A DNA stretch of 51,232 nucleotides. Origin: Nemertoderma westbladi. Taxonomy: Eukaryota > Animalia > Xenacoelomorpha. Positions 10,066 through 49,135 of the stretch are shown here, piece after piece. The notes under the pieces are model-generated. The model worked only from the letters and a program-made list of their open reading frames with translations, was not told the DNA's origin and made no database searches. The position numbers and the translations under genes were made by a program. Each line of letters begins with the position of its first letter. Position 1 is the stretch's first letter. Where the stretch lies: assembly GCA_032718475.1 (NCBI GenBank), contig JAUCBJ010007269.1:1-51232 (forward strand), read 5' to 3'.

Positions 10066-11265
10066 TGTTCGCGCTTTTGAAGACCTTTAGCAGTTTAACC
10101 TGCCAAAATTTATATGTCTTTTAGTTAATTAAAACACCTTTAGCATACGACAATATTTTATGCTAATAAACAAAACATTACCCGAAGTCAGCCCATGCGC
10201 GATCATTCACCCGATGGATCTACACCCGGGAGGCTGAATTCGGCTGCTTAAATTTTATTATTGCAGTGTAAGGTTGCAGTGTAAACTTACTGTATTATTC
10301 GATTGATCGTTATTAATTAATTTCTGACAGATATTATTGGCTTTCGGGAAATATTAACAGTTCCTTTAGGACGTGGCGCTCTATCTATTTAAACAGGGCT
10401 AGGACTTATACCAAACGCAACGATACTGCTTATGATTAAAGTATAAGGCGCATTCTTTAGGAAATGCTTTGTTACCAATCACAATCATGCACACTATTCT
10501 GCCGACCGTCAGTAAATTTGATCACACATAAAGAGAGCAACAATTGACTCATGTAGGGTCTGCTAAATAACATTAGATTCAATACACACCACATTAATAT
10601 AAATCGCAATTGTTATATATAGCCCGTCTCTCTAACCTGTAGTGTATCAAGAAAATTGGGAATTTTGGGTGATTTATCCGTATTCTCCAAAGAGCAATAT
10701 TTCCATCAACAAATAGATACAATTAATAACTGACGGTAAATAACAGTACAAACAATATGATTAATAGTGAGTTAATTAGATCAGATAAGATTGATTGATT
10801 AGTTGATTAGATAACAGTTTATACTTTCGATAATTTAAGCAGTTTTACTAGAGTTCTTCCCAAAAAGCCGGTGTTATGGCGAAAATGGGAACACAACAAC
10901 AGAATCATATAAAATCATATGACTACTAGCTATACGAGGATACCAACTACCCTTATTCCACAAAGCTCCCGTTCAACACAGAGGATGAGCAGTGAGATAG
11001 GAAATTCAGTTCAGTAGCTCTGGGATAGGTCGAAATCAACGCCCACTCAAATTCTATTGGCCGATACGGACAGCAGGGCTTAGGCAACCTCCCTAGGCTG
11101 GTTGGCCGATTAAACTGAGCCCAGATACCTCCGTACAGCACATCAGCCAATAAGCTGGTAGCTTGCACTATTTTACCTATAGCTCCCTTTTAGAGTATTC
11201 TAGCGACCGGGGGGGAACTGGCCAGCAAAGGCAAACGTATCAGTTATCCCACAAAAGCTTTTACA
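10066..11265 (-). repeat. 3' LTR of element A (1200 bp)
   Basis: On the minus strand it starts TGTAAAAGCTTTT and ends AAAGCGCGAACA, the same termini as the LTRs of element B. The 3' half aligns with the element B LTR (e.g. AGCGCCACGTCCTAAAGGAACTGTTAATATT). AATAAA at about 10254-10259. Confidence 0.9.
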
Positions 11266-13119: not shown

Positions 13120-13823
13120 ATTCCTGTTGCACGCCTAACATGTTTTCCGCCATCGATGGGAGAGGGCAAGGAAAACCTATGACACATTCAACAAGGTTTA
13201 AAATACGATCTCAGTAGGAGGATTATGTCATTCGAAGATTATCTCCAAATTAATTTATCCCCAATTATTAAGGGAGGTGAACAACCAGATTTATGACACA
13301 CAATGGTACCAGTTGTTCACAGACTAGCCGCGTATCCTTTTAGTCCTTGTATCGGGTTGTGGACCTAAGGAAATTATCGGTGGTTGATTATGTAATCAAC
13401 GACAAAGAGATGGGCGTTGATATTATAAATACCAACACAATGGTATATGGACAGGAGGTGCGGACACGAATATAGGCATCCAGATAAACAGTAAAGGGTG
13501 GGGAGATTTATTAGGAAGCGGTATGATTCATACCACGATACCACTATGATTGGTCGATCGATGAAGGGAGTAAAGAGGAGGAAGGAGATATGGCAGTATC
13601 CATAAGACACCACAATGGACATGTTTTCCGTTACCCCATCATTCATTACTGCTTTACTAATATTAATTACTAATTACTATTACTGCATTACTGCTTACTG
13701 TGACACTGATCACAATAATTACAGGAAAACGATGAAGGAAGAGAAAGTTACAGCCTCCCGAAGGAGACCGCCCGCGAGCACCCGTGCCCCGGGGAAAACT
13801 ATTCACATTATGGACCCTAGACA

Positions 13824-14453
13824 TCAACTCATGTCTCTTCTCCAGTGGTTCCCTTCTATTAGTTCAAAGCTATCCGAGACAACAGATAGTGGACGATCTG
13901 CGGTAAGATACATCATGGTGAAATAGAGTCGTTTGAGTTCTACCATGGGATCGTGATGTATACCTTGAGGATATCGAGTCTCTAGGTTCTGTTGACTGGC
14001 AATATTGAGATAGGTTTCTCTCAAAAATTCCAAGTAGTCGTTGAAGTTGATACGCTTATCGGGTTCTTCAACGTTTTCTCTGTCGAGTAGGTTGCGAATA
14101 GAGTTCTCGTGTTCTATTCTCGGTTTATCATTACGATTCCGCTGGGCATGATATTTAAATAAAACCATTTCCCTTTCGGTGTCTACATCATCAGTATCAT
14201 GTAAATCGGTAGGATGGCCGGTAGTTAAGAAGTCCATATACGTACCATTACGATTCGTATAGCGAGCGGTGAATTTTCTATAGTCCGATTCACGCGTAAG
14301 TTGTTCCTGGGACATCGGCGGTTCGATATAACGACCATCGTCCTCCGTAATAGTTGGATCGGCTTCACCGCGTATCAAGCTATCCACAAACGCTTGTAAA
14401 GGTAGAGTATATCGCTCTCTAATACCAAAGTCATCTTCTATCAATTCCGTCAT
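13824..14453 (-). CDS. Accessory ORF2 of element A, 209 aa acidic soluble protein of unknown function
   Basis: Open ORF. The homologue in element B (from 43331) shows many third-codon-position differences (e.g. CCG/CCA, CAG/CAA, GAA/GAG, CTT/CTC in RYIEPPMSQEQL), indicating past purifying selection on the protein. Confidence 0.8.
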   Translation of the reverse strand: MTELIEDDFGIRERYTLPLQAFVDSLIRGEADPTITEDDGRYIEPPMSQEQLTRESDYRKFTARYTNRNGTYMDFLTTGHPTDLHDTDDVDTEREMVLFKYHAQRNRNDKPRIEHENSIRNLLDRENVEEPDKRINFNDYLEFLRETYLNIASQQNLETRYPQGIHHDPMVELKRLYFTMMYLTADRPLSVVSDSFELIEGNHWRRDMS

Positions 14454-14496
14454 ATCTGCTATCTGAGTTTATTAATATCAATATGAGTTAATATTT

Positions 14497-14639
14497 TAGG
14501 CAAGCGGGCGTCGCTGCCTACTAGGCTTTGCCCCCGGACAGTGGGTTTCTCAGTGCCGATGTACCGCTGTCGCAGTGTTTACGCCAACATGTAGCAACAG
14601 CACGACAACGATAACTGGCACAAGTCCCACCACTGTCCG
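14497..14639 (-). other. Predicted long RNA stem-loop plus short hairpin just upstream of ORF2 (element A)
   Basis: Closing stem CGGACAGTGG/CCACTGTCCG (14535-14544 with 14630-14639), inner stems GTGCC/GGCAC and CGTTGTCG/CGACAGCG, then hairpin AGGCAGCG...CGCTTGCCT. The same fold, with compensatory changes, is at 43141-43285. Confidence 0.7.
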
Positions 14640-15264
14640 TCCCAAAGGCTTGAATCCACTTGAGGTTATCTCGGTAGAGTTAGGGCTACTTTACAATTGC
14701 GATTAGCTACTGTAAACACACTTTAGTAGTAACATTCACCTATAAACGCACAAATTCCATACAATCATTACTTACTGCACACATGCATGCCATTTGTCCG
14801 TTAGTCAGTGTCTTCCAGAATGTCACGTTATTACTATGTATCCTTGGATACTAATAATGCGCTATGTATACTCTTATGCTACGCAATGGGGCAAGCTTTT
14901 ATTGTTCCTTTAACTTGCTTCTAATTCTAGCGTGGGTGTTGCCATGGTGACATTATGGAAAACTAGCGGTAGAATTAGGGTAATTCTCATGCATACAGAT
15001 CTGGGATGTTATTTAATAGTAATTCTTTAATTGTCAATATCCTCTTTATGCATGATTTTATAAATTTTATCGGCTATTGACTATATATTGGAGATTCTCG
15101 CACTCTAGTACACTCAATATGAATCTCCGCTCCCATGATCTATTAATTACTGGAATTTTGGGAATGTTATAAATTGCACAAAATGACAATTTATGAAATT
15201 CATTTGAATATGAATTTAAATTTATTCCCGTGAATTTTATTATTTGATGTTAAATTGACACAAA

Positions 15265-15556
15265 TTTTATTCCAGAGCATGTCTGGGAACTCAGGATCCT
15301 TAATTCTATAAAATCGTCCTTTTAAGAATATCGGTAAATACTGCGATATTTTAATTGACTAGAAATTTTAAAGGATCGGAATTTTACAGATTTTAATAAA
15401 TATTAAATTAATATTTAGGATGGGCACCGATTTATTCCAGAACTTGTCTGGGGACGTTAACCAATGATTCTAGAATTTGTCTTTCAAGTATATCGGTGGG
15501 TGCCACGATATCTTAATCGACTAGAATTACAGATGGTCAAAAAGTTTAACAGATTT
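15265..15556 (-). repeat. Two diverged ~125-bp direct repeats with hairpin potential in the 3' non-coding region of element A
   Basis: Each has the form AATCTGT..TTCTAGTC.ATTAA.ATATCG-N10-CGATAT.CTT.AA..GAC...TAGAAT...CCCAGACA.G.TCTGGAATAAA. Counterparts at about 42197-42322 and 42376-42505. Confidence 0.7.
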
Positions 15557-16073
15557 ATTTGCGATTTACGCTACTGTTAGAGGGACATCACGCTACTATA
15601 TGTATTATTTGTTATAAGGTAGAAGAGCAATATCGCACGAAGCAATGTCAGTGTGAAGAGGCAAGTCGTTTCCAAGGTCTACCCAGAGCTTGGTTTAGCC
15701 GAGACACGAGGATCTGAACTTTGCATTCCTAATACTCTGCCTACCAATAATACTTAAATATAGTAGTGGCTTTATTGTACTTTAAGAAGTACGGACATTT
15801 CATCTTACTGTAGTCACGTATTTATAATATGATACGGACAGTAAGGGAAGAGAAAATAATTATTTCTCGCCATCGCACTAAATATATATTATAGTAATTA
15901 TGTACGTAATAAACACTAATATATTGCACTAATCTACTAAATAATCCCTAAAATAACATTCTACTAAATAAAAATTGAATAAAAACGATTATAATAAAGT
16001 ACATAATAACATTTACATATAAAATGCAATAAAAACAGATAAATAATATAGACATACACCCACTCCAGACGTA

Positions 16074-19000
16074 CTACGTTGAAGAGCCCCTAGATGTTTG
16101 AGGTATTAGGGAGGTGGTCGTGGGAAGGGTTTCTTGCCTTCCATAGTTTCCAGAGAGTTCTCTGTCTCTTTCCAGTAAACATAAACGACCAACTGGGCGA
16201 TTGAGTTGTTGCGTCTCAAAGATTATGCCAGGCTTCTTGAAGTTACGCCGCATAACGATGAGTTCTACTGAACGCACTAAACCATCCTCCGAGATATGAG
16301 TCTCGATGATACGACCTGTCTGCCACCGTTTACGTGGGAGGTCTTGATCTACAATAAGTACCATATCTCCGGCGCTGACGTTTTCCTGCTGCGCAAACCA
16401 CTTAGTTCGAAGTTGTAGCGTGGGCAGGTTATGTCTCTCGAAATGGTCAGCGAAACGACGGGATAGCAACTGCATAAGTTGCCAAGTTCGACGGCAGTAT
16501 TCGTCTCCGTCGACAATCTCCGATCGTGGGAGCATGGCTACCGGTTTCTTCAGTAGGAAGTGCGCAGGTGTCAGCGCTTCCAGGGAATCGGGACTCGATG
16601 AGACTGGCATAAGCGGTCTCTCGTTGAGATAGGCAGCTATTTCCTCCATTAACGTCCGCAAAAGTTCGTCGGTGAGATACGCACGGCACGGCACTATAAA
16701 GTGAAATGCGGTCTTAACACTTCGAATTAATCTCTCCCAACTTCCTCCCCACCAAGGGGCGTCGGCGGCGTTGAAGGTCCAGCTAGACGCTGTTATCCTT
16801 AGCTGGTCATCCACCTGTCTTTGGTTCCAGTCCTTTACGTAAGCTTGTATTTCGTTGTTGGCACCAATGAAGTTCGTTCCCTTGTCCGATCTCATGGTAT
16901 TACTCGTACCGAAGCGAGCGATCTGTCGTCGTAAACTTAAGACGAAACTGTTGGTAGATAGATCGTTCACCATATCGAGATGGATGGCTCTGCAAGTCAT
17001 GCACACGAAGATGACACACCATCTCTTGACTATAGTCCTCGCACGATATACTTCAATAGGGCCAAATAAATCTACACCAGTATTAGTAAAAGGTGGTTCA
17101 TAGAAGCTTACTCGTTCCCTAGGTAATTCTGCCTCTCGCTGTGTTAAAGGCCTACTGAATGCTTTCCTACAGGGTATGCAGTTCCTAAGAACTTGGTTCA
17201 GAGCCCTACGGGGTTTATCAAAATAATAGCGAGTTCGAATTTCGCTAAGAACTCGTTCTCTTCCAGCATGATAAAGCTTACTGTGAACATCTACAATCAT
17301 CTTGATTTGTACTTCAAGATTTCTAATGAGTATGGGGAATTTAGTGTCAAAGGATAAGGGTGCATTGGTTAACCTTCCTCCAACACGTATTAATCCATCT
17401 ATCATTGTGCTAGAGAATCGATCCCTTAAGCGCATCTGCGGATTTCTCAACAACAGGAAATACTTTTCGGAATCCTCATAGCATTGCAGGAGTCTCAGTA
17501 TCTGTTTATTAGTCTCTTCATGCTCCTGGTGACTAATTTTCTCCTTTAGAAAACTGTCAGACACTTTGTATTTAGGTAAGTTTTTAATAACATGAACTTG
17601 CGCAGATGTCAATGGAGCGTTATCACTAGTGGTCTTCGCCCTGGAGTATTGATGATGAAAGCATCTCTTTAAATATGTGACGGCTTTACAGAGCCGATTC
17701 CAGGAACTGTAGTGATGCATCGCTCTCTGCAGCAGGGGTGAGATTCCTTGCGAGACGTCTGGTATTCCAGATTTCCAATCTCTATCTCGAATTTCCGCAA
17801 CAGATTTATTTATAGCGAGGGATTGTGGATCTAAACCATCGTTTCCGGAAACATGTAATACAGATAGATCGATAGTCGGTTTAAATAACTTCGATTTACT
17901 CGCCCGGGTTTTAGGTTTAACGGTCTCCGCTCCCTTGGCTTGTCTAATTTCCGCCGTAGTAAGGTGAGGAGGCCATTCGTCCTCTTCCTTGCTCAGGAAG
18001 TCGGGTCCACCCAACCAATCTGGAGTATCTATCAGTTCCTGTGGAGTTGCTCCCCTGGAGGCGATATCGGCTGGATTAATCGTACCAGGGCAATGTCTCC
18101 ATTGATCTATCTTTGTGCGACTAAGAATAATAGCTACCCTATTAGTAACAAAAACGCTGAACTGACAGACCTCATTGGTTAGATACTCCAACACGAGTAA
18201 AGCGTCGGTCCAATAAACCGTTTTCTCCAGTGGGTAATCGATTTGTTCCGTTACGTTCCGGCCGATGGCTGTAGCGTATAAAGCCGCTTTTAACTCCGCT
18301 CGAGGAACCTTTAACTTGTTGTTAATCAGTGCCTTAGAGGTAACCAAGGCGACTTTGATCCCATCCGGAGTTTCGACTCGCAGATATGCTACTATACCTA
18401 TTCCCATGTCGCTGGCGTCTCCAAACACATGGAGTTGATAGGAATACGTCGGAAGAACATGTCCAAAATATGCACGGGAAATTATAAAGTTCTCGATGGC
18501 AGGTAGAGAATCTTCCCATTTCATCCATTTCTTCAACAGTTCTCCCTTAAGCGGATCATCCCACGAGTGGTTTTCAAGCCACATCTGTTGTACTAAACTC
18601 CGAGCAATCAATATAACTGGGCTAATAAATCCCAATGGGTCGAAATAAGTGCTCAGGATACTTAAACAAATCCGTTTGGTCCGGACTGGATTATCTCGCT
18701 GTTTTAACTGAAAAAACAGGATGTCTCTTTCAGTGTCCCACTTCAAGCCTAGCGTCTTGGTTTCAGGAAGATCGTCTTTTATTAAGTCTAGGTCTTTCGC
18801 TCCGCGATCCTCTACCGGTATGGCTTCCAGAAACTCACGGGAGTTACTAGTGAATTTCGTCAGTCGAAATCCCCCTCTTTTCAAACACTCTACCGTTCCT
18901 TTCGCGACAGCTATGGCTTCTTCTACTGATGGAAGGGACCTTAAATTGTCGTCCATGTATATATTGCGTTTTATGTTGTCTATCACTTCTTTGGAGAAGG

Positions 19001-22000
19001 AGTCTCGGTTGTCATTCGCAGTGGTTCGCACCACGGAGCAGGCGTTGGAAGGGCTAGATATGATCCCAAAAGCCTGGATGGTCATCCAGTACTCCACCGG
19101 TTTCTGGTTGAGGTCTCCTTCAGGCCACCACAGAAATCTCAGGCTGTCTCTATCTCTCTCCAGCGCCTTGACTTGTAAGAACATTCCTTCGATATCGGAA
19201 GCGAACGCGATGGAATATTGTCTTATTCTCAAAAGTATTCCCAACAAAGATTGGAGTAAATTGGGTCCTGGTAACAACTCGGAATTAAGGGATTGGCCCA
19301 TATATAGAGCAGAGCCATCGAATACGACTCGTACTTCATGGGGTTTACCGGGTTTGGGAACGTAATGATGTGTTAGATAATAAGTTCTTTCAGTTATTGG
19401 AGTTCCTTCCGGTACTTGCTCCGCATATCCCTTTGTGATAAATTTCTTCAACTGAGTTTGGTACATTTCCTTAGCTGAAGCGTTTGCCGTAAGACGTCGA
19501 TGTAATTGATTGATTCTTTTCTCAGCCAAGGGTCTGTTATTTATAAATCTGGGTTCACGTTTTCGGAAGGGTAGTCCGATTTCATATCGACCTTGATCTT
19601 TTAAAAAACGTGTGGTTGTTTCCTGGATTTGCTTGGCTCTTTCTTCTTCTATCGACAGGGCTTTGTTGTATGAATTGGGTTCTACTAATTCTTGGGTAAA
19701 GAATCGTACGGCTAGTTCGTCCCGAGTTCTAGCGTTGTAGCGCTCTACCTCGTCATTAAGTTCGTCATTATAAATAATGGATTCCGTTGGGCGAATCAGT
19801 TGACATAGGTTCGTTTGGTTTTTCCAAGTTTGATTCTCTGTAAGTAGGTCAATTGTGTTCTCTTCTTCGAAGAGTTGGTAGATGTCGTCATTATCTGAGG
19901 AGTATGGTGTTCCCTCAGTTAGTTCGTCCACCTCACTGCTTTCCACTTCCCCATCGTTTACTTGATATATTTGTTCGTGTGGCATTCTCTCTTCGAGAGT
20001 TCTACGGGAAGGGCCAGTAAAGTACCAACCTACTCTAGTTCTTACCGCATAAGTTTGCAGTGGTTGTGGTTGAGCAGGCCGTTTCTCTAATGTTTCGAGC
20101 GCCTCGTGCGCGTTTTGGCCGATAAGTATTTGCACTCCAGGATAATCTGTCTGGAATCGAGGTATCTTAAGATGTTGGACGCTCTCATCTTCGTCCCAAT
20201 TATAAAGGTCTGCTTGAGTAGTAGCAAAGTTCTTTATAGCCACCATTTTTACTGACCTTATACCTTGTGTTCCTAACTTATCCTGGGGGGTGGACAACAC
20301 ACCTACATAGTAATCTGCCGTTAGGGTAGATTTCCAAACCTGCATAATTCCTGACATATTCAATTTAGTCCGGAACTTGGGTTGTCCAGCAAAGATATCT
20401 TCGGCTAGTTCTTGATCGATGAATGTTCCTGTGCTGCCGGAGTCCAGGAGGGCGTTCACTATGTAGCTTTTGTCAATACCGTGAACTCTTACCTGAACTA
20501 CAGGAAATTCTCTGATTCCTACGTTGGAAGCTGGAGCTTTCCAAGATGGTTGTTTGGCGAAAGTAGTTTGGGGAAACTCATCGTTGATGTCCTTTTCGTA
20601 AGTAAGTGCTCGATACACTGCGGTATTGATTAGATAACAGGATTCGTTGGCGTCGGAGAATTCGTCAGTATAGAATCCTTCCATCTCAGACTCCTGATCA
20701 GTGTCATTTACGTCACTAAATTGGACATGTAGTTCGGGCTCACTTACCTGACTCTGTTTGTCTCGTTCGAACTCACTGTGTAACAAGATGTGATGTTTCG
20801 CGCCACACTTTGCACACTTTATGTCTGAGTAACAGGTTCGCCGTTGGTGTCCTGGTCTGAGGCAATTATAGCATAACCGCTTGTCCCACACAACTGTACG
20901 TCTATCTACAAGGGATTTCTTTAGAAATTCAGCACACGCACTCAAACGGTGTGTCCCGTCGCACAGCGCACAGTTAGGTTTTATGTTACTCACCTTACCT
21001 TGGGTAACTTGATGCACTCTCGTTTTTTCATCGGGTTTTCTTCGGTGCATTCTGTTAGGAGACTGAGGAGGGGTCTTGGCAACCTGTTCTCTCCTATCGT
21101 TGTTTCGAGCCTTATATTTACTTACATCTTTTGAGGTTTTGTCAACATAGTAAGATCGGTCTGTGTCTTTCCCGCTGTCCTCTTCTTGGGAAGCCTGGCT
21201 TTCGCCGTCGTCAGTGTAACACACCGGTGTTACTCTTCTCCTAGAAGTGGGTTTCTCACTTACCTTATTTTCCGATGTTTCCTCTCTGGACTGATTGATG
21301 AGTTGTAGTTTGACTTCACCATCTAAGAAAGACATGAGATCAGCCATGGTAGGACTTCGTCGTTGTTGTTCATTCATGTACAACACTTTCTTGTCCCAGC
21401 GTGTACATACTCCACCCTTTGGTAAAGTAGAGACTACGGCTCCAATAACCATGGAACTCTGATATTCATGCGACTTACCTAACCAGTCCAGTTGTCTACA
21501 GATCTCTTGAATTTCATCGGAAAACTCTATAATCCCACTACTAAGGAAGTGTCGGGGGGCTACTAATTTTGCATACAAATACTTAGCTATGTTATCCTTG
21601 TTACCATACCTGATGTTTAATGTATCCCAAACTTGTCTTAATCCTTCTGGATGTCCAATAAACTTTAACGCCATTAACTTGGGAGGTCCTTCCAAGCACT
21701 TGATGAGGAATCTAAGTTTCTCTCCGTTAGATAGTACAGAGTTCTGTATGCTATCTTTGTAATATTCGTTGAAAGGTAACCATTTCATCTCATCTCCATT
21801 GAATTTGACGATCTCTCCCACTTTGACCGCTTGGCGGGCTTCTGTTCTAGCCATCTGACGCATAAAGCTTTCTTGGGCCATCGTGTTATTTAATATCGAA
21901 TTATCGGTATACAAATTTCTCGGATCATTATCAGGTCTATAGGGAATATCATTAATAACAGGTCTATAATCACCCTTAATAGGGTTTGCTATAGGAGTTT

Positions 22001-24107
22001 CAACTTCACTAGCAGTATAGATGCGTGCAGGCTCCACACCTTGCGCATGTAATACTTCAGACCTAACAGGTTGACACAATGTTACAGGGGGTATTGGTAT
22101 GCCCTTTTGGATATTGACTAATTTGTCGCGTTCTAGTGCGATACTTTGCTGCACTTCTTGCAACTCCGCTCTACCTTCCCTCACTGTTCCCTTAAGTTGG
22201 TGGACAGTCTCCTGCATCTGTCCTAGCAGGAGATTCATCCCCCGCCGCCCCTCTTCCACCCACTCAACCGCCGAAGCGGGAGTCGCCAACATAGTAGCGG
22301 GCTGACGCGGGACGACGGGAGACAAATTTTTGATTTCTCTCTCTGCTATCTGGACAGGGATATTCTCTTGGACTGCTCCACCGGGTACAGGCAATGTAGT
22401 ACTATGTAAAGGGAATTTAGAGTTAAGCTCTGGAAGTACAGGGGTCTCTAACACAGAAGTGACTTTGGGAACGACAGGCCTAATTATCTCAGGCTCATCA
22501 ACTATTGTAGAGAGTCTTTGGACCTTAATACTTTGGGCTGTAGGTTCTATACTACTCAAGTCTGTGCTAGCTAGCTGTCTTCTAACAGCTGGGGGCAAAT
22601 CAGGCAATTTGCGACGGTAAGATGTTTTTCTACGCCTACTTAGATGAGATCTATTTCCTCCGCCTTCAGGATCGGTAGTCTCGCCTTCCTCCGAGGACGT
22701 GTATCCCTGGCGCTTGGGAGTAGATTTTCTCATCATCTGCATTTGATTAGCAGTAAACTGTTTATTTATGCTATCTTGCGCCTCTTGCAGATTTTCCAAC
22801 TCTAGTTGGATAGTCTCCTCAGACGCTCTCCGTTCTGCTTCTGCCACTGTTGCTTTTCTTTCGGCTTCCGCCGCTTTTCTTTCTGCTTCTGCTTCTGCCG
22901 CTTTTGCTTTTCTTTCGGCTTCTGCTTCTGCCGCTTTTGCTTTTCTTTCGGCTTCTGCTTCTTTTCTTTCTGCTTCTGCTTCCGCCGCCGCTGCTGCTGC
23001 TACCTTCCTTTTCTCTATCCGTTCTTTCTTTACTTGATCTTCTCGGACTCTAGTGAGGCGGAGTTGTTCATCACATTCAGCTTGGTTTGCAGCTAACATT
23101 TCGGCATCGATTGAGTCCAACACAAGCTTGGTTCCTTCACTATTAGGGGAAAGCCCAGACAGCCGTCTCCTCAACTCTTCGTCTCCTAGGAATCGCTGAT
23201 AGTCGGACAAATAAATGTCGATAGCGTCTCTAGTTCGCGGCTTCTCGGCGGTCTCTTTGCTTTCCGCTTGAGAAAGGGTGACATCAGTTGGTTCTTCATA
23301 GGTTGATCTCTCAGCTAGCTGGGATTTCCACTGGGCCGTTTCCTGTACTTTGAGATCTACCCTATGTAACCAAGTTTTGACAGCAACCTGCAGCGACGTG
23401 TCTTGTCTTCTTTTGGAAGTTTCCTCAAAGGCTGAGAGGATTAGTCGTATGCGTAGGGTTCTTTCGCGTATTTGGTATAGCAGCTCTTCCTGCTCTTGAG
23501 GTCCTTGAGGTTGTCGAAACAGTTGTTCTTCCAATCGCTCCAAGGAGCCGAAGAATCCCTGCACATATCCTGATGCCGACCTCTTCCAAACAGCTGGATC
23601 CATTGTATCTTGTGCCACTCCCATCCTGTGTATATCATCCCAAGTAGCCTCGGACAGGTCCAACGGGAGTCCGAGTCCGGGAAAGTTCCATTGTGACTCG
23701 ACAATAGACATTAATTCTTCCCTGGCGTATCCCGCATAATTATCTCGGGTCGCTCGCTTATTCCTCGCCCAGTCGGCTTGATGTTCCTCCACCGCAATGA
23801 ATATAGTAGTTAGCACTGCAGCAGGAAGGGTAAGAAGGGGGTCCGAGTAGACTGTAACAGCCATCTGCCCTCCGCGTTCGGGGGTCAGCTCTACAGTATC
23901 CGAACTGCTAGAGCTATCGGGTCGCTGGGAAGTAGGTTCTTGACCAAGATGTTGCTGCGATGGGACAACTGCCTCTTGGTTCCGTTTGACCTGTGCCCGA
24001 GTGCCTATGATGGACCTATGGTGGATTAGCCTAGGGTCTGATACTACTGGAGGGATGACCTTTTTTGCAGTAGGAGGTGAGCTGAACTCCTTTCTTAATC
24101 GCTCCAC
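16074..24107 (-). CDS. Bel/Pao Gag-Pol polyprotein, 2677 aa (Gag, protease, RT, RNase H, integrase)
   Basis: Three Gag Cys/His motifs (CALCDGTHRLSAC, CYNCLRPGHQRRTC, CAKCGAKHHILLH); protease ALLDSGS; RT SDIEGMFLQV, RFLWW, YMDD; RNase H LHVFGDAS, PRAEL, WTD, NPADIASRG; integrase HHCC plus GVDLFGP, SDKGTNF, WERLIRSVK. True start uncertain (the track uses a GTG; the first ATG is about codon 82). Confidence 0.96.
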   Translation of the reverse strand: MERLRKEFSSPPTAKKVIPPVVSDPRLIHHRSIIGTRAQVKRNQEAVVPSQQHLGQEPTSQRPDSSSSSDTVELTPERGGQMAVTVYSDPLLTLPAAVLTTIFIAVEEHQADWARNKRATRDNYAGYAREELMSIVESQWNFPGLGLPLDLSEATWDDIHRMGVAQDTMDPAVWKRSASGYVQGFFGSLERLEEQLFRQPQGPQEQEELLYQIRERTLRIRLILSAFEETSKRRQDTSLQVAVKTWLHRVDLKVQETAQWKSQLAERSTYEEPTDVTLSQAESKETAEKPRTRDAIDIYLSDYQRFLGDEELRRRLSGLSPNSEGTKLVLDSIDAEMLAANQAECDEQLRLTRVREDQVKKERIEKRKVAAAAAAEAEAERKEAEAERKAKAAEAEAERKAKAAEAEAERKAAEAERKATVAEAERRASEETIQLELENLQEAQDSINKQFTANQMQMMRKSTPKRQGYTSSEEGETTDPEGGGNRSHLSRRRKTSYRRKLPDLPPAVRRQLASTDLSSIEPTAQSIKVQRLSTIVDEPEIIRPVVPKVTSVLETPVLPELNSKFPLHSTTLPVPGGAVQENIPVQIAEREIKNLSPVVPRQPATMLATPASAVEWVEEGRRGMNLLLGQMQETVHQLKGTVREGRAELQEVQQSIALERDKLVNIQKGIPIPPVTLCQPVRSEVLHAQGVEPARIYTASEVETPIANPIKGDYRPVINDIPYRPDNDPRNLYTDNSILNNTMAQESFMRQMARTEARQAVKVGEIVKFNGDEMKWLPFNEYYKDSIQNSVLSNGEKLRFLIKCLEGPPKLMALKFIGHPEGLRQVWDTLNIRYGNKDNIAKYLYAKLVAPRHFLSSGIIEFSDEIQEICRQLDWLGKSHEYQSSMVIGAVVSTLPKGGVCTRWDKKVLYMNEQQRRSPTMADLMSFLDGEVKLQLINQSREETSENKVSEKPTSRRRVTPVCYTDDGESQASQEEDSGKDTDRSYYVDKTSKDVSKYKARNNDRREQVAKTPPQSPNRMHRRKPDEKTRVHQVTQGKVSNIKPNCALCDGTHRLSACAEFLKKSLVDRRTVVWDKRLCYNCLRPGHQRRTCYSDIKCAKCGAKHHILLHSEFERDKQSQVSEPELHVQFSDVNDTDQESEMEGFYTDEFSDANESCYLINTAVYRALTYEKDINDEFPQTTFAKQPSWKAPASNVGIREFPVVQVRVHGIDKSYIVNALLDSGSTGTFIDQELAEDIFAGQPKFRTKLNMSGIMQVWKSTLTADYYVGVLSTPQDKLGTQGIRSVKMVAIKNFATTQADLYNWDEDESVQHLKIPRFQTDYPGVQILIGQNAHEALETLEKRPAQPQPLQTYAVRTRVGWYFTGPSRRTLEERMPHEQIYQVNDGEVESSEVDELTEGTPYSSDNDDIYQLFEEENTIDLLTENQTWKNQTNLCQLIRPTESIIYNDELNDEVERYNARTRDELAVRFFTQELVEPNSYNKALSIEEERAKQIQETTTRFLKDQGRYEIGLPFRKREPRFINNRPLAEKRINQLHRRLTANASAKEMYQTQLKKFITKGYAEQVPEGTPITERTYYLTHHYVPKPGKPHEVRVVFDGSALYMGQSLNSELLPGPNLLQSLLGILLRIRQYSIAFASDIEGMFLQVKALERDRDSLRFLWWPEGDLNQKPVEYWMTIQAFGIISSPSNACSVVRTTANDNRDSFSKEVIDNIKRNIYMDDNLRSLPSVEEAIAVAKGTVECLKRGGFRLTKFTSNSREFLEAIPVEDRGAKDLDLIKDDLPETKTLGLKWDTERDILFFQLKQRDNPVRTKRICLSILSTYFDPLGFISPVILIARSLVQQMWLENHSWDDPLKGELLKKWMKWEDSLPAIENFIISRAYFGHVLPTYSYQLHVFGDASDMGIGIVAYLRVETPDGIKVALVTSKALINNKLKVPRAELKAALYATAIGRNVTEQIDYPLEKTVYWTDALLVLEYLTNEVCQFSVFVTNRVAIILSRTKIDQWRHCPGTINPADIASRGATPQELIDTPDWLGGPDFLSKEEDEWPPHLTTAEIRQAKGAETVKPKTRASKSKLFKPTIDLSVLHVSGNDGLDPQSLAINKSVAEIRDRDWKSGIPDVSQGISPLLQRAMHHYSSWNRLCKAVTYLKRCFHHQYSRAKTTSDNAPLTSAQVHVIKNLPKYKVSDSFLKEKISHQEHEETNKQILRLLQCYEDSEKYFLLLRNPQMRLRDRFSSTMIDGLIRVGGRLTNAPLSFDTKFPILIRNLEVQIKMIVDVHSKLYHAGRERVLSEIRTRYYFDKPRRALNQVLRNCIPCRKAFSRPLTQREAELPRERVSFYEPPFTNTGVDLFGPIEVYRARTIVKRWCVIFVCMTCRAIHLDMVNDLSTNSFVLSLRRQIARFGTSNTMRSDKGTNFIGANNEIQAYVKDWNQRQVDDQLRITASSWTFNAADAPWWGGSWERLIRSVKTAFHFIVPCRAYLTDELLRTLMEEIAAYLNERPLMPVSSSPDSLEALTPAHFLLKKPVAMLPRSEIVDGDEYCRRTWQLMQLLSRRFADHFERHNLPTLQLRTKWFAQQENVSAGDMVLIVDQDLPRKRWQTGRIIETHISEDGLVRSVELIVMRRNFKKPGIIFETQQLNRPVGRLCLLERDRELSGNYGRQETLPTTTSLIPQTSRGSST

Positions 24108-24114
24108 ACTCCTC

Positions 24115-24437
24115 AGGCATTCCTGTGGGAAACAGAGTGGAAGGGTTTACTGTGGAAGATCACCCATGGTGGTGAACAGGCATTCCTTTAGGAAACAGAG
24201 TGGAAGGGTTTACTGTGGAAGACCACCCATGGTGGTGAACAGGCATTCCTTTAGGAAACATAGTGAAAGGGTTTACTGTGGAAGATCACCCATGGTGGTG
24301 AACAGGCATTCCTTTAGGAAACAGAGTGGAAGGGTTTACTGTGGAAGATCACCCATGGTGGTGAACAGGCATTCCTTTAGGAAACAGAGTGGAAGGGTTT
24401 ACTGTGGAAGATCACCAATGGTGGTGAACAGGCATGC
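24115..24437. repeat. 63-bp tandem repeat (~5 copies) in the leader of element A
   Basis: Unit AGGCATTCCTTTAGGAAACAGAGTGGAAGGGTTTACTGTGGAAGATCACCCATGGTGGTGAAC, near-identical copies. Confidence 0.95.
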
Positions 24438-24965
24438 ATTCCTTGACTTAACGAGCCTAAAATAATATTATCTTTTCACTATTCATATACTTTTAAGGGG
24501 ATACCCCCCCCCCCCCCCCCCCCCCCCCTCCCCCCTCCTTTACACTGGGACTGGTGGGACCTCGGCACGAAATAACCAAACGCGAAAATGATATAAACCA
24601 TATCTGTATCTGTATATTCAACAAATATCATGAAACACACCCGCTGACACAAAAATAATAACCACTAACCAAAAAATACTAGCCAGCTGCGCCAAAGAAA
24701 ATAAATATTATGTACCAGGTAGACTGTGTGGCGGACAAATATAAAACAAACATTTAATGTTTAATTAGTTTAGTTTGCTAGTTATCGACAGACATTAAAA
24801 ATAATAAAATACCTCTTAGTGCCTAATTATCAATACAACATATACACGGCTTAGAGACACAGAGTAGCCAATGGAATCGAAGGTAATAACCACACAGCGG
24901 CATAAGCAATCTAAATAACTAATAAACAAACAAACAACATAATTTAACCTGTCTCTTATGTTAGA

Positions 24966-27445
24966 TACGGAGCCCCTAACTAAAGGGAGATGGAAAAAAA
25001 ATAACTTTATTTTATTATCCAGGGACAAGCCTTCTAATCAAAAATTCCGGGGCCCGAGATAATTCAACTCACTGATTGGTTGGTTATCTCGGGGCCCGAG
25101 TTATTAAGTCGGGGCCCGAGATAATTCAACTCACTGATTGGTTGGTTAACTCGGGACCCGAGTTATTAAGTCGGGGCCCGAGATAATTCAACTCACTGAT
25201 TGGTTGGTTATCTCGGGCCCGAGTTATTAAGTCGGGGCCCGAGATAATTCAACTCACTGATTGGTTGGTTATCTCGGCCCCGAGTTATTAAGTCGGGGTC
25301 CGAGATAATTCAACTCACTGATTGGTTGGTTATCTCGGACCCGAGTTATTAAGTCGGGGTCCGAGATAATTCAACTCACTGATTGGTTGGTTATCTCGGG
25401 GCCCGAGTTATTAAGTCGGGGCCCGAGATAATTCAACTCACTGATTGGTTGGTTATCTCGGGGCTTGAGATAATTCAGTCAGAAAAGTTATTAAGTCGGG
25501 GCCCGAGATAATTCAACTCACTGATTGGTTGGTTATCTCGGGCCCGAGTTATTAAGTCGGGGCCCGAGATAATTCAACTCACTGATTGGTTGGTTATCTC
25601 GGGGCCCGAGTTATTAAGTCGGGGCCCGAGATAATTCAACTCACTGATTGGTTGGTTATCTCGGAGCTTGAGATAATTCAGTCAGAAAAGTTATTAAGTC
25701 GGGGCCCGAGATAATTCAACTCACTGATTGGTTGGTTATCTCGGGCCCGAGTTATTAAGTCGGGGCCCGAGATAATTCAACTCACTGATTGGTTGGTTAT
25801 CTCGGGGCCCGAGGTATTAAGTCGGGGCCCGAGATAATTCAACTCACTGATTGGTTGGTTATCTCGGACCCGAGTTATTAAGTCGGGGTCCGAGATAATT
25901 CAACTCACTGATTGGTTGGTTATCTCGGACCCGAGTTATTAAGTCGGGGTCCGAGATAATTCAACTCACTGATTGGTTGGTTATCTCGGGGCCCGAGTTA
26001 TTAAGTCGGGGCCCGAGATAATTCAACTCACTGATTGGTTGGTTATCTCGGGGCTTGAGATAATTCAGTCAGAAAAGTTATTAAGTCGGGGCCCGAGATA
26101 ATTCAACTCACTGATTGGTTGGTTATCTCGGGCCCGAGTTATTAAGTCGGGGCCCGAGATAATTCAACTCACTGATTGGTTGGTTATCTCGGGCCCGAGT
26201 TATTAAGTCGGGGTCCGAGATAATTCAACTCACTGATTGGTTGGTTACCTCGGACCCGAGTTATTAAGTCGGGGTCCGAGATAATTCAACTCACTGATTG
26301 GTTGGTTATCTCGGGGCCCGAGTTATTAAGTCGGGGCCCGAGATAATTCAACTCACTGATTGGTTGGTTATCTCGGGGCTTGAGATAATTCAGTCAGAAA
26401 AGTTATTAAGTCGGGGCCCGAGATAATTCAACTCACTGATTGGTTGGTTATCTCGGGCCCGAGTTATTAAGTCCGGGCCCGAGATAATTCAACTCACTGA
26501 TTGGTTGGTTATCTCGGGACCCGAGTTATTAAGTCGGGGCCCGAGATAATTCAACTCACCGATTGGTTGGTTATCTCGGGCCCGAGTTATTAAGTCGGGG
26601 CCCGAGATAATGCAACTCACTGATTGGTTGGTTATCTCGGGGCCCGAGTTATTAAGTCGGGGCCCGAGATAATTCAACTCACAGATTGGTTGGTTATCTC
26701 GGGCCCGAGTTATTAAGTCGGGGCCCGAGATAATTCAACTCACTGATTGGTTGGTTATCTCGGACCCGAGTTATTAAGTCGGGGTCCGAGATAATTCAAC
26801 TCACAGATTGGTTGGTTATCTCGGGCCCGAGTTATTAAGTCGGGGCCCGAGATAATTCAACTCACTGATTGGTTGGTTATCTCGGGGCCCGAGTTATTAA
26901 GTCGGGGCCCGAGATAATTCAACTCACTGATTGGTTGGTTATCTCGGGGCCCGAGTTATTAAGTCGGGGCCCGAGATAATTCAACTCACTGATTGGTTGG
27001 TTATCTCGGGGCCCAAGATAATTCAACTCACTGATTGGTTGGTTATCTCGGGGCCCGAGTTATTAAGTCGGGGCCCGAGATAATTCAACTCACTGATTGG
27101 TTGGTTATCTCGGGGCCCAAGATAATTCAACTCACTGATTGGTTGGTTATCTCGGGACCCGAGTTATTAAGTCGGGGCCCGAGATAATTCAACTCACTGA
27201 TTTGTTGGTTATCTCGGGACCCGAGTTATTAAGTCGGGGCCCGAGATAATTCAACTCACTGATTGGTTGGTTATCTCGGGCCCGAGTTATTAAGTCGGGG
27301 CCCGAGATAATTCAACTCACTGATTGGTTGGTTATCTCGGGCCCGAGTTATTAAGTCGGGGCCCGAGATAATTCAACTCACTGATTGGTTGGTTATCTCG
27401 GGCCCGAGTTATTAATTTTTTCCATTGCCCTTTAGGGGCTCTGTA
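24966..27445. mobile_element. Non-autonomous TIR element with TAYGG-type ends (IS3EU-like) filled with a tandem array
   Basis: Left end TACGGAGCCCCTAACTAAAGGGAGATGGAAAAAA; right end (reverse complement) TACAGAGCCCCTAAAGGGCAATGGAAAAAA. TAY..RTA termini are described for IS3EU. Flanks (GTTAGA / GCATAC) do not form a TSD. Confidence 0.65.
25047..27415. repeat. 61-62-bp tandem array (~38 units) rich in palindromes, with recurring variant units
   Basis: Unit GGGCCCGAGATAATTCAACTCACTGATTGGTTGGTTATCTCGG(G)GCCCGAGTTATTAAGTCG. A variant containing CTTGAGATAATTCAGTCAGAAAAG recurs at about 25464, 25667, 26054 and 26379. Confidence 0.97.
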
Positions 27446-27570
27446 GCATACAACCAAATTATCAGTTTATATTAAATTAATCAACTAAATGAAATATTCA
27501 TATTCCTCCGAGGTAAAATGTCTGTTGAGCCTCAGTAAGAGATGACTGCTGAGTTGATACGGTCTGCCAT

Positions 27571-30830: not shown

Positions 30831-30909
30831 CTCACAGTCAGTATTGCGAGTCAGCAGTCAGGAAACGGTTAAGTTATTTCAATTATTGGTTACCTACCGA
30901 TACAGTCGA

Positions 30910-31900
30910 AATGTGTTCAAACTTAATTGATACCAAAATTTTGATTTTGGGACCAAGGGAAGTAATGCCTCAGGCACATGGCCAGAACCTAATCTGTGGC
31001 GCATGTGACTTTTATTCTCAATTTTCGCGATAGCCAACTTTGAGTTCTCGTACTGCATTAATATTATGCTCATTAGAACCGCAAATTCCGATTTAGTGGG
31101 GGTAGACAACTTCAAAACAAACGTAGAGCGAATAGTTCTTGAGATATTGCAGAAAATGTCTGGCACAAGTCTACATTATTACCGCCTTGATGCGATATGG
31201 ACAAATCCTCAAAAAATTATATTTTGAATTATCTCAAGGAATCAAGAATATACACATCACAGAAATGATCGATGTGGTGGGTGTAGACGCCTTTAAAATA
31301 AGAGTAGAGTCATTAGTTCTTGAGTTATTTTACAAAATGTCAAGACTATGTCACCAATTGATATTTTATATTGAGTTGACCATGGAATACTAAATATATA
31401 TATATACATACATACATACAATATATATACATAAATATACATATATATTTAGTATTCCATGAGTTGACCCATTCCAGACATTTTATACAAAAACTACAGA
31501 TAACTAATCGCTACTCTTTAATTTTGAAGGTGTCTGTATACACTAAATCAATTCGTTGCAATTCGTACATTTTTAGTGTATTTGTCTAAAAATCATCGAA
31601 GTCACTATAATGTTCACTTGTGCCGGACTTAACATTTTCTGCGATATCTCAAGAACTATTCGCTCTATGCTTGTTTTGATGGTGTCTACCCCCACTAAAT
31701 CGGTCTGTGGTTCTAATGAGCATAATATTAATGCAGTACAGTAGGAGAACTAAAAGTTGTTCATCGCGAAAATTAAGAATAAAAGTCACTTGCGCCAAAG
31801 AGTAGGTTCTGGCCATGTGCCAGTGGCACTAGTTCACTTGATCCAAACATTAAAATTTTGTTATCTAACTAAGTTTGGACCCATTTGATGACATTTGATG
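30910..31900. mobile_element. Foldback-like element with ~260-bp inverted arms
   Basis: About 30913-31170 is an imperfect reverse complement of about 31616-31880 (e.g. GGCACATGGCCAGAACCTA / TAGGTTCTGGCCATGTGCC). The same family occurs at 46200-46810. Confidence 0.75.
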
Positions 31901-34242: not shown

Positions 34243-35473
34243 TGTAAAAGCTTTTACTGAATTGTCCGGTTATTTTTCCTTATTTTTCCCGTAAAGTACT
34301 CTGTAGTTGGTTTACCAGGCATAAAAAGGCCGTGTCCTTGCTGTACTGGTGTTTTAGCGGACATAAGAGCTATTTCTTCTGTATTTGTACTTTAGAGGAC
34401 ATAATCCGTAATTCCGTGACGTAAAAGCTCGATACTCTTGAAAACAGTGTCGCTACCATGACGACGGCTAGCAGCTGATATTGCCACGTCCACCTTTCTT
34501 TGTTTCTCTGTTCTCTCGTTGTTCATGTTGACCAATCAGAGCGTTTGTGATCTCTGTGTTGGAGGTATATACAGAAACTCAGTAGTTCAGTGTTATGTTT
34601 TTGTCCAGAGCCTAAGAACCGGCTTTGGCACCTCCGTGTTTTAGTTTTTAGTCTTACACTAGTAGGTTTAATTATAAAGGGCATATATCCTTTAACGCAC
34701 CTACCTGACTCATGGAATCACTGCATACTGATGACTGATGTCTGTATACTGCAGTACTGCATACACTGCATACTGTGTAACATTGTGCATACCTTTATAT
34801 TGTTATACTGCTATTAACCGTCAGTTCTTCATAATATGGTTGATGAATAATTATATTTGGAATAACGATAAACAACCCCGAAACCCAATATTCTTGATAT
34901 ACCGAAGGTAAGAGAGAAGGGTTACAGATAAACGATTGTGACTTATGTTAAAGTGGTTTGAAGTGAATCTAATGTTATTTGATAGACCCTACATGAGTCA
35001 GTCTGTGTTCCTTTTATATGTGACTAAAATCAGTGAAGATTGGCAGATTAGTGTGCAGTATTGTGCAGCATTGTGTATGAGTGAGTCTGTTAAAGAAGCA
35101 ATTCCTAAAGAATGCGCCATATATGTGAATTATAATTAAGCCATATCGTTGTGAGTAGTTTAAGTCATAACTCTGTTTATATAGATAAAGCGCCACGTCC
35201 TAAAGGAACTGTTAATATTACCGAAGGTGAATAATATTGTCAGAGATTATATAATACTGTCAGTCGAATAATACATTAGGCTTACATAGCAATACAAATT
35301 AAACCGTCGAACCCAATCTCCCGGGAATATCCAGCGGGTGAATGGTCGCGCACGGATTGGTTTCGACTAGTGTAGTGAATCAAATACTTGTCATAGACTA
35401 AAAAGCAGATTTATTATCTAGAAGACATTCTAATTTGGCGGGTTAAACTGCCAAAGGTCTGAAAGCGCGAACA
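34243..35473 (+). repeat. 5' LTR of element B
   Basis: TGTAAAAGC...GCGCGAACA. Only two differences from the 3' LTR were seen by eye (CCACGTCCACC vs CCACGTCGACG). CCAAT at about 34532, TATATA at 34566, TCAGT at 34579 and 34587. Confidence 0.97.
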
Positions 35474-35744
35474 TTAAAGGATATTGCTTCTTTATTGCAG
35501 TAAGCAATAAAGTCGAAAGTACCGGTCGACCGGTAACCAGTAGGCCTGACTGCCTGATCATCCGGACCGGTACCTACAGCAGTATTATTCGATTTTGATA
35601 ATTATATACCGGTAGGCCTTAATAATTAATCAGGGAGGGCCCGCCCTGGTTTTTTATTGAGTTTTTACTTATTTCTGTCAAGTTTTATTTATTTGTAGGC
35701 CAGTATTGAACAGAAGGCGTGTAAACCTGATCAGATTGTACAGA

Positions 35745-36312
35745 CAATTTGTAGGCTGAGCTGTTGTCTGATTGCTGTTAAGTCCGAACGAATTGCAGTG
35801 TGTGTAGAGCACTTGTCCGATTAAGTACGGTTAGGAAGTAGGGGCAGCCACGCTGTAAGGTAAACCCCCAACTAAAGAATAAGTCGCACTACTGGGTTAG
35901 AGCGCATACTCCCTAATCATTTCGGAGTCTGCATGTCCTGTATTTTATTTAGGCTTGAGAGTAGTCTGCCATCGTTTAGTCTGTACTTTGTTTGTGTAAG
36001 TCTGTACGGGTAGCGTATAATTTTATTTAGATAATTTGTAGGCTGGATAGTTGTCTGGCTGTTATTAAGTCTGAGCGGATTGCCGCGTGTGTAGATCATC
36101 TGTCCGATTAAGTACGATTAGGCAGTAGGGGCAGCAACGCTGTAAGGTAAACCCCCAACTAAAGAATAAGTCGCACTACTGGGTTAGAGCGCATACTCCC
36201 TAATCATTTCGGAGTCTGCATATACCGTAGTTTGTTTAGGCTTGATAGTAGTCTGTCAGTGTTCGGTCTGTATTTTATTTGAGTAGTTTGTACGCGTAGC
36301 GTAATATTTATT
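35745..36312 (+). repeat. 287-bp tandem duplication in the 5' leader of element B with a nearly invariant core
   Basis: Copies start at about 35751 and 36038. The ~95-nt core GTAGGGGCAGC.ACGCTGTAAGG...CATTTCGGAGTCTGCAT is essentially identical while the flanks are diverged. Confidence 0.9.
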
Positions 36313-37632
36313 ATTCAGAGTTTATGCGATTATTCGCAACATTCATTCCCTAAGTTTGTTCCTACAGTAATTGTGTTTGTTATACATACCGTTATAGTTA
36401 AATTAACCCCGGTACTATACGGGCTGCTCGGCGTAGGTAAAGACTGGTGATTTTGTGCATCGGTCACTCCAGCAGATGCCGTGGTTCTTTTAGCTGTTCA
36501 AGTATATTTAACTACTGATTATTTGTTGTACAAGTACTCGTACCTAATTTAGGGTTTAGTGTACAGTGCTTTCCCGAAGTAATTATTGTAGCCATTATAT
36601 TTGTGTTGTAAAGTGGTTGATAGGCACATTCGATTAGCTCTATTAACTTCTAGGTAGGAACACTCCGTGATACATAACGTAGAACCTATAGCGATACGGC
36701 TATAGGTCGTCAGGCGGTGGTATTTTCCTATCTAGACAACGCAGTGTATTTGCTACTACTTATTATTTCAAATACCGTAGTACCCTGTCCGCTGTAATAA
36801 TCAGTTTTCTAACCCTTTGTTAGGCTGGTTTGTAGACTTCTTGTAAAATTACCCTAAAAATTCGTATTTTGTGTTTTTTTGTAAATTTTTGTGTTTATTT
36901 AGAGATTGTAATCTCACCCGAATTGTACGTAATTTGTAGTATTAAGTAACTTAGGTAAATTAGAATTATTTGTTTTAGTGTCTCATAAGTAACACTTCAC
37001 TGAAAGCGCACCGCTTTGTGTAGTGATTACTCCCCAGAAATAATAACATTTATTTCAAACATTGGCAAAACCCATTAAAACGGGTATATATAAATTATAA
37101 ATCAAATCTAACGATTTATAAATAGTAGGCCTACCATATAACAATTAGGTCTCAATATCAGTTGGATTACTGCTCAAATAACGGTAATAAAGTAAGTAAA
37201 GTAACAAAGTAACCCTAAAGTAACAGAAATTCAATTATTTGAAATAATTGATATACCGGTATTTACGATAGGCCTATTATCTTTATTTCTATAAATCTAG
37301 GCTGAAATTGTACCGGTACTTGTAATTAATTCTATTTCAGAATTATATATCCTACAAACTGTAAGCTGTATACCGGTATTCCGATAGGCCTATTATATAT
37401 TTATATATATTTGTGCTAAAATTATACCGGTGTTCTGTGATAAACCTGGTCTGTAATAATACTTATATAGTTATATATACTATAAGCATACCGGTATTCT
37501 AATATATTATATATATCACGCTACACTGAGTAGCAGTACCGATAATTAATTACTAGGCTATCAGTTAATACTGAGTTACTAGACTTGCTCAGACTGTAAT
37601 ACAGCAGTAGACATTCAACTGTACACACAAAC

Positions 37633-43330: not shown

Positions 43331-43750
43331 ATGATGGAGTTGATAGCAGATGTTCTTGGTATCGGGGAGCGATATACTCTACTTTTGCAAGCGTTTGTTG
43401 ATAGCTTAATACGCGGCGACGTTAGTCCAACTGCTGCGGAGGACGATGGTCGTTATATCGAACCGCCAATGTCCCAAGAGCAGCTCGCGCGCGAGTTGGA
43501 CTATAGAAAATTCGCTGCTCGATACGCAGCGTAATGGTACGTATGTGGTCTTCTTAACTACTGGTCATCCTATCGATTTACACAATACGGACTATGTCGA
43601 CTATATATCCTGCCCAGCGGAGTCGGAACCATAAACTGAAATTCGAATGCGAAAATTCTATTCGAAATCGACTCGAAAGAAAAGACACTAAAGAAACAAA
43701 TGGACGCGGTAACTCCAACGTATATTTGGAATTCTTGATAGAAGCATTGT
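43331..43750 (+). pseudogene. Frameshifted remnant of accessory ORF2 in element B
   Basis: MMELIADVLGIGERYTLLLQAFVDSLIRG...RYIEPPMSQEQL aligns with ORF2. A frameshift near 43530 moves RNGTYVVFLTTGHP to another frame, with further decay beyond. Confidence 0.85.
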
Positions 43751-44661: not shown

Positions 44662-44739
44662 CTGTTTAGAGTATCTTTATGTTTTAGAAACTGTGATTTT
44701 TATATTTTATAGACTGAAAATCCCATTTTCTGGGAGCGG

Positions 44740-47967: not shown

Positions 47968-48280
47968 CTGTAATGAAACCACAGTAATGTAGAAACACGG
48001 CCCACGGATAAGGGAGTCAATCCAACGGAGCCAATATGTGAGTCACTCCAATAGGAATGACAGTCTATTATTTAAATAAACATTTTGCTAAATTAATTAG
48101 AACCTATCAGGTTTATCATACACATATGTTATACGGTTTGCTGCTACCATACCATAAAATACGGTAAAATTAAGTATTAATAATAATAAAATAATTAGAG
48201 CACAAGGGTAGATAGATTTTATGATCTTAAAATAATTTGTTAGTTAGTATCATAAAATAATAATAAATTAATTAATACTA

Positions 48281-49109: not shown

Positions 49110-49135
49110 TATACTGATGACGGCGTCGAGATTCA

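Follow-up and report, generated by a model that had tools for sequence, protein, structure and literature searches.

LTR elements must export their unspliced RNA from the nucleus, for which they rely either on NXF1 bound to a structured RNA element or on a protein of the Rev type (PMC10309623, in part). The structured elements include the MTE of MusD and the PTE of MLV, the latter about 1,400 nt long with seven stem-loops (PMC5767303, in part), and the CTE of SERV-K/MER11, which is non-coding (PMC11379458, in part). In Cer1 of C. elegans, a cysteine-rich non-env protein named CERV is encoded after pol and is required for export of the genomic RNA (PMC10309623, in part); extra non-envelope ORFs are also known in other LTR lineages (PMC5408684, in part). 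The replication of Bel/Pao elements is poorly understood according to the ICTV (PMC8742986). No cis RNA element described for Bel/Pao was found in the literature covered by a partial index, in which the spelling with a slash was unsearchable, and the indexed portion of the main BEL/Pao survey, supplements excluded, contained nothing that matched on primer, non-coding or untranslated parts (PMC3118150).

Two related Bel/Pao-type LTR retrotransposons are present in opposite orientation in the window, i.e., the whole analyzed stretch of 51,232 nt from Nemertoderma westbladi: element A on the minus strand and element B on the plus strand. Downstream of gag-pol, element A has a spacer of 1.6 kb, then ORF2 (209 aa), ORF3 (591 aa), and the 3' LTR; its 5' LTR and leader are absent from the window. 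The elements and their reading frames are as follows.

16074–24146, minus strand: gag-pol open frame of element A, 2690 codons (Pfam Peptidase_A17, DUF1759, DUF5641, Integrase_H2C2)
14454–16073, minus strand: non-coding spacer of element A between pol and ORF2, 1.6 kb
13824–14453, minus strand: ORF2, 209 aa, orphan, no transmembrane segment
11344–13119, minus strand: ORF3, 591 aa, orphan
10066–11265, minus strand: 3' LTR of element A
34244–45970, plus strand: element B, with LTRs at 34244–35473 and 44741–45970 and a CGCTA target duplication

The Pfam families and the positions of the Pol motifs placed Pol in the Bel/Pao type, with the order PR-RT-RH-IN; the motifs are at 1233, 1730, 1910, and 2359–2469. 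The best 120 of 372 Pol relatives were 35–46% identical, and the named ones came mostly from marine invertebrates, with two from fish. The TG...CA ends of the LTRs and the target duplication of element B agree with the family Belpaoviridae. The genome length departs from the 4.2–10 kb given for that family, as element A is at least 14 kb and element B is 11.7 kb. An 18-nt primer site for tRNA-Arg or tRNA-Gly was not found in element B, in which the site was judged by the presence of TGG (the 5' LTR of element A being outside the window), and no TGG occurred within 25 nt of the LTR. Since length and primer site differ from the ICTV profile, the host element is called Bel/Pao-type on Pol alone. 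Pattern and protein searches of viral and metagenome contigs revealed no relatives, and no tRNA gene was found in the window. The gag frame of element A enters a tandem array with a 63-nt unit and a run of G/C (24051–24440, 24510–24535), after which comes a palindromic tandem array with a 61–62-nt unit (25040–27520).

The LTRs of element B are 1230 nt long and differ at 2 of 1231 compared positions; this near-identity and the CGCTA target duplication indicate a recent insertion. Its gag-protease frame is open, Pol residues ~1423–2010 and 2172–2633 are missing, ORF2 is frameshifted, and just the tail of ORF3 is retained. The remnant of ORF2 is separated from the tail of ORF3 by approximately 750 nt (43745–44498, plus strand) with no similarity to element A, and the 2.1-kb leader contains a 257-nt direct repeat (87%; 35742–36285, plus strand). 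A recurrent 1712-nt deletion that removes the integrase (16211–17924) was present in run contigs, which shows that element B is not the only deleted derivative of this family. The window also contains MITE-like foldback elements with long terminal inverted repeats at 30909–31900, 46179–46824, 48279–49111, and 884–1383, the first two of which are related.

The first 11 nt after the 5' LTR of element B (35474–35484) pair perfectly with 34685–34695 within the LTR, and this complementarity extends to approximately 15 pairs with one bulge; among control leader 11-mers, 1 of 2106 had a perfect LTR complement. As a sequence feature, this resembles the self-priming for which Tf1 provides a precedent (PMC4600332, in part). 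The site at 34685–34695 is not conserved in the LTR of element A, whose own primer site is absent from the window. The modules and core described below were rejected as a reverse-transcription primer, as their pairing to the post-LTR site of element B was weaker than that of the LTR's own complement.

The region of interest had been placed downstream of pol by the first-pass annotation and likened to structured 3' elements of retroviruses. The location was correct; however, the region is not a 3' untranslated region, as ORF2 and ORF3 follow it. A hidden coding gene was ruled out: there is no shared sense-strand ORF of at least 25 aa in the spacer, and 24 of the 27 indels between elements A and B are not multiples of three and break the frame, so the spacer is non-coding. 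The order of predicted structures on the sense strand is three small hairpins, the core stem with its head, module 1, and module 2. The features predicted within the spacer are listed below.

15780–15868, minus strand: three small hairpins preceding the core stem
15593–15767, minus strand: core, a long irregular stem (9 bp + 8 bp + ~11 bp) around a near-invariant head of ~120 nt
41895–42193, plus strand: core in element B (95%)
15457–15540, minus strand: long hairpin of module 1 in element A (sense z −4.0, 0/200 shuffles; antisense z −1.4)
15437–15451, minus strand: second stem of module 1 in element A (5 bp, 5-nt loop)
15295–15377, minus strand: long hairpin of module 2 in element A (architecture as in module 1, other basal helix sequence; MEA fold)
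15272–15286, minus strand: second stem of module 2 in element A (one C-G to U-A double change in element B)
42212–42315, plus strand: module 1 of element B
42390–42498, plus strand: module 2 of element B (z −3.0 sense, −3.5 antisense)
14525–14650, minus strand: long G-U-rich hairpin just before ORF2 (in element B at ~43130–43258, plus strand)

Comparison of the two full copies, elements A and B (of which the run variants described below are not independent), revealed 3 differences in 205 positions at 15625–15829 against 104 in 359 four-fold sites of gag (p = 1e-19); the pS of gag was 0.445. Thus, the sliding comparison suggested in the first-pass annotation bore out its claim that the stretch next to the modules is more conserved than the synonymous sites of gag. 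The values for module 1 (15430–15560; 4 of 131, p = 7e-12) and module 2 (13 of 100, p = 1e-3) were also below the four-fold gag rate. The extent of the near-invariant zone had to be redrawn: the adjacent stretch is conserved as claimed, but the zone also takes in module 1, and it is interrupted at 15561–15624 by a variable patch (8 of 64 positions) with a near-invariant block on either side (p = 0.003 if the rate were uniform). The variants in this patch are mostly in a predicted bulge and linkers. As a whole, 15430–15829 contained 15 differences in 400 positions, compared with 136 in 806 for the rest of the downstream spacer (p = 3e-12), which was itself under the four-fold gag rate (p = 5e-6). 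The 200-nt interval with the fewest differences had 3 in the spacer and 11 in gag-protease. In addition, the ORF3 tail and the polypurine tract were unusually alike between the elements (7.9%, dS 0.18), which suggests that patchy exchange may occur in the family. Retention of the spacer in element B is weak evidence, because the ORF2 of this element was under purifying selection until recently.

Natural variants were obtained from genomic runs; the stretch was present in seven runs, and five of the eight listed runs were compared. In run X1, 27 variant entries of at least 10% were in the 600 nt at 15260–15859 and 388 in the other 3901 nt of 13500–18000 (p = 5e-6), and in run X3 the corresponding numbers were 26 and 433; the inside and outside counts were obtained separately and are biased towards the reference, runs X1 and X2 represent one sample, and X1 may be the source of the window itself. 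Family-wide, the variant density in 15260–15859 was approximately half that of the surroundings. Alleles like those of element B occur in run X4 (organism B) and in run X6 (organism C; from the study of X1, with a depth of ~3–5), but these runs were not counted as independent, because they may represent a relative or carry-over.

The positions of the variants were then related to pairing probabilities from the fold of element A alone. The 17 variant places at 15430–15859 had a mean pairing probability of 0.33 on the sense strand against a background of 0.61 (p = 0.0008), whereas on the antisense strand both values were 0.60 (p ~ 0.5). The avoidance of sense-strand pairs was robust to circular shifts (2 of 429) and to base matching (p = 0.001). 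The effect was weaker when the entire 600 nt with module 2 were used (p = 0.007 sense, 0.10 antisense), and 4 of the 17 places had a pairing probability of at least 0.9. Identity above the synonymous level, together with sense-pair avoidance, supports a constrained RNA element. The two outcomes that had been named in advance as fatal to this idea, neutral identity or conversion without a structural bias, were not observed: identity was much higher than at synonymous sites, and the variants avoided sense-strand pairs. Selection very probably acts on a sense-strand RNA element that is real and probably structured.

A recent recombination or conversion tract, or the sweep of one spacer haplotype, could explain the identity without any special function, and we assign little probability to this. 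Element B needs a helper, co-packaged RNAs recombine, identity is patchy elsewhere too (in the ORF3 tail), and the family is abundant, with 37,956 unitigs in run X1, unitig depth not being taken as copy number. However, identity is non-uniform inside the block, and its variable patches are in bulges, which argues against a single recent recombination patch. Such a tract would also not be expected to yield variants that avoid pairs on one strand only, or paralogous modules that retain their fold despite basal sequence change. Finally, module 1 occurs alone in longer unitigs: those of 530, 550, and 1071 nt match 15430–15515 with 9 differences and 2 gaps, as expected if module 1 is retained in diverged relatives.

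The four hairpin modules reported previously are real. The 21-nt pattern of the 5' arm occurs exactly four times in the window (0.00 expected; 0/100 shuffles reached four), at 15344–15364 and 15506–15526 on the minus strand and at 42226–42246 and 42404–42424 on the plus strand, and ATATCG-N10-CGATAT also has four occurrences against 0.16 expected. The four variable loops correspond to those listed earlier, read on the sense strand of the elements. Each module is approximately 105 nt long, from the basal helix through the end of the second stem, and the modules are spaced 162 nt apart in element A and 178 nt apart in element B. MEA folds with flanks predicted one architecture for all four. A basal helix of 6–7 bp leads through an internal loop into a further helix, a bulge of 6–8 nt then interrupts the 3' strand, and three short helices stacked on each other end in a loop of 10 nt; a stem of 5 bp stands apart from the long hairpin. 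In the long hairpin of module 1, these parts are the basal helix, the internal loop, the AAUUCUA/UAGAAU helix, a 6-nt 3' bulge, GUC/GAC, UUAAG/CUUGA, AUAUCG/CGAUAU, and the 10-nt loop. By energy, module 2 of element A was unremarkable when folded alone (z −0.2 and −1.3; 19/200 shuffles).

The earlier observation that changes concentrate in the loops was upheld: when the four modules are compared, variation affects 7 of the 48 paired columns and 28 of the 47 unpaired columns (p = 6e-6 by Fisher's test, a value that is partly circular because the structure was derived from those same four sequences). In the proposed covariance analysis, covariation was not above that of shuffles (128/500). The predicted basal helix is an addition to the first-pass annotation: module 1 has UGACCA/UGGUUA and module 2 has GAUCCU/AGGAUC, so that the sequence diverges between the modules while pairing is retained. 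Three of its six pairs are altered on both sides and one on a single side by a hand count with a 1-nt register shift, and because of this count and shift the changes are outside the covariation test.

The dimensions of the modules bring to mind microRNA-like precursors, from which Drosha-type cutting would free near-identical 21–22-nt RNAs of the shared 5' arm. The 5' strand from the basal helix to the loop is 34–35 nt in all four modules, close to the Microprocessor stem length of ~35 bp (PMC6298569, in part), with a loop of 10 nt. Over the four copies, just two positions of the 21-nt 5' arm vary, whereas the loop and the basal helix turn over. Nevertheless, a one-sided bulge of 6–8 nt on the 3' strand would be inside the putative duplex, none of the loops contains UGUG, and only module 1 has a basal UG. 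Such sequence motifs are optional in many miRNAs. Rfam gave no miRNA family at threshold, and processing of this kind would leave the core and the second stem unexplained; we therefore consider a precursor role distinctly unlikely.

The core, modeled as a long stem with a near-invariant head of 120 nt, is likewise new relative to the first-pass annotation. The 9-bp and 8-bp segments of the stem are perfect, and the fold of the head is poorly determined. No compensatory change was found among the 94 predicted core pairs, and by energy the antisense fold of the core equaled or surpassed the sense fold (z −2.7 and −3.2 antisense, compared with −1.8 and −1.5 sense). The head is the most invariant part with the least defined fold, so the constraint on it may not be structural. 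A head that is invariant in sequence yet poorly folded would suit a promoter or enhancer acting at the DNA level, for ORF2/ORF3 or an antisense RNA, with the hairpins as palindromic factor sites, and parts of the spacer do fold better antisense. However, variation of the G-U type that is confined to bulges and seen on the sense strand only is unexpected of DNA sites, and this explanation appears very unlikely.

The strongest fold in the spacer is the G-U-rich hairpin just before ORF2, whose stability is much greater in the sense orientation: the alignment fold had z −7.5 sense and −0.9 antisense, and the single-sequence values were z −3.9 for element A and −6.9 for element B. Its four double changes were not above shuffles (24/100). 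This hairpin is a candidate splice or translation control element. More shared folds occur at 14850–15250, including a three-way junction at ~15150–15230, and part of this block folds better antisense (z −5.7, compared with −3.9). Rfam searches of the whole window and both spacers gave no matches at the gathering threshold and sub-threshold chance hits only.

The proteins encoded downstream are orphans, as no homologs were found for ORF2 or ORF3. ORF2 has evolved under purifying selection (dN 0.11, dS 0.67 against element B over 68 codons); its structure model was unusable (pLDDT 34), and the atlas lead was unnamed (0.90). ORF3 contains one CX2CX4HX4C knuckle, two looser ones, and a basic C-terminus with K/R at 16 of the last 40 residues; its atlas leads included zf-CCHC at up to 0.86. 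Neither protein has a transmembrane segment, and an envelope function was ruled out. In both elements, TAGCAG is located 2 nt before the ORF2 ATG and, as read from the sequence, is a possible splice acceptor.

Since ORF2 and ORF3 lie downstream, control of splicing or translation is a real alternative that was absent from the first-pass annotation. The spacer, modules included, would then regulate expression of ORF2/ORF3, either as an IRES or by controlling splicing through its structure. Structure and conservation extend over the entire spacer, its best-supported hairpin is 70–200 nt before the ORF2 ATG, and ORF2 needs a translation route behind a frame of 2690 codons. However, the core and modules are 0.8–1.4 kb upstream of that ATG, they are near-invariant in element B despite its frameshifted ORF2 (a loss that may be recent), and no IRES was matched in Rfam. 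On balance, we regard expression control as unlikely.

From their position and by analogy with known elements, there is about an even chance that the core and twin hairpins would serve as an export or packaging signal for unspliced genomic RNA. Like transport elements, they form a non-coding cis segment after pol inside an LTR element, and no homology to a catalogued element was detected in Rfam. As a protein-binding signal, the spacer RNA would route unspliced genomic RNA from the nucleus and into particles. Spliced RNAs lacking the spacer would serve for translation of ORF2 and ORF3, the splice being suggested by TAGCAG; located between pol and the possible ORF2 splice acceptor, the spacer would mark full-length RNA only. 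The invariant head would be displayed by the long core stem, and each module would contribute one copy of a shared helix-plus-bulge site. The signal might be bound by a host export factor or by the element's own zinc-knuckle ORF3 protein, and element B, without most of pol and ORF3, could have been moved in trans via the spacer signal. With its predicted stems, natural variants, and candidate protein partner, this discrete element of 600 nt allows direct tests of how Bel/Pao elements export and select their genomic RNA, and it may represent a retrovirus-style export switch that arose independently.

A bolder version of this export reading, which is tentative and rather improbable, is a Rev/RRE-like switch in a "complex" Bel/Pao element, with possible tRNA-free priming via the 11-nt LTR self-complement. 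In such a switch, ORF3 would bind the stem-and-head RNA and the twin hairpins and thereby license genomic RNA, and deleted copies such as element B would ride along.

Comparison of the locus with the known systems demonstrated both similarities and differences. The HIV-1 RRE consists of a long stem presenting a branched head, and the spacer core is also predicted to be a long stem with a head. Animal pri-miRNAs share with the modules a stem arm of ~35 nt, a 10-nt loop, and a conserved 21-nt arm, but the modules have a large one-sided bulge, and the motifs are mostly missing. Among Belpaoviridae as described by the ICTV (PMC8742986), the single gag-pol frame, the protease-RT-RNase H-integrase order, the Pao Pfam families, and the LTR of ~1.2 kb are matched by the host element, which differs in being longer than 4.2–10 kb, in two extra non-envelope ORFs, in the 1.6-kb structured spacer, and in the lack of a tRNA-type primer site in element B. 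Similar to the Cer1 CERV, ORF3 is post-pol, non-envelope, cysteine-rich, and basic; however, Cer1 is a Ty3/gypsy element, the consulted part of its description names no RNA target for CERV (PMC10309623), and ORF3 has no detectable homolog and only putative RNA binding. The MTE, PTE, MPMV CTE, and SERV-K CTE, as far as their partly consulted descriptions go, are likewise multi-stem cis RNAs of LTR elements that are needed on unspliced RNA, and the PTE is similar in scale to the spacer. These elements are vertebrate retroviral, whereas the spacer has no sequence or Rfam similarity to them, and its export role is proposed by analogy. By that analogy, the spacer element would work like the MTE, PTE, CTE, or RRE but belong outside every catalogued family.
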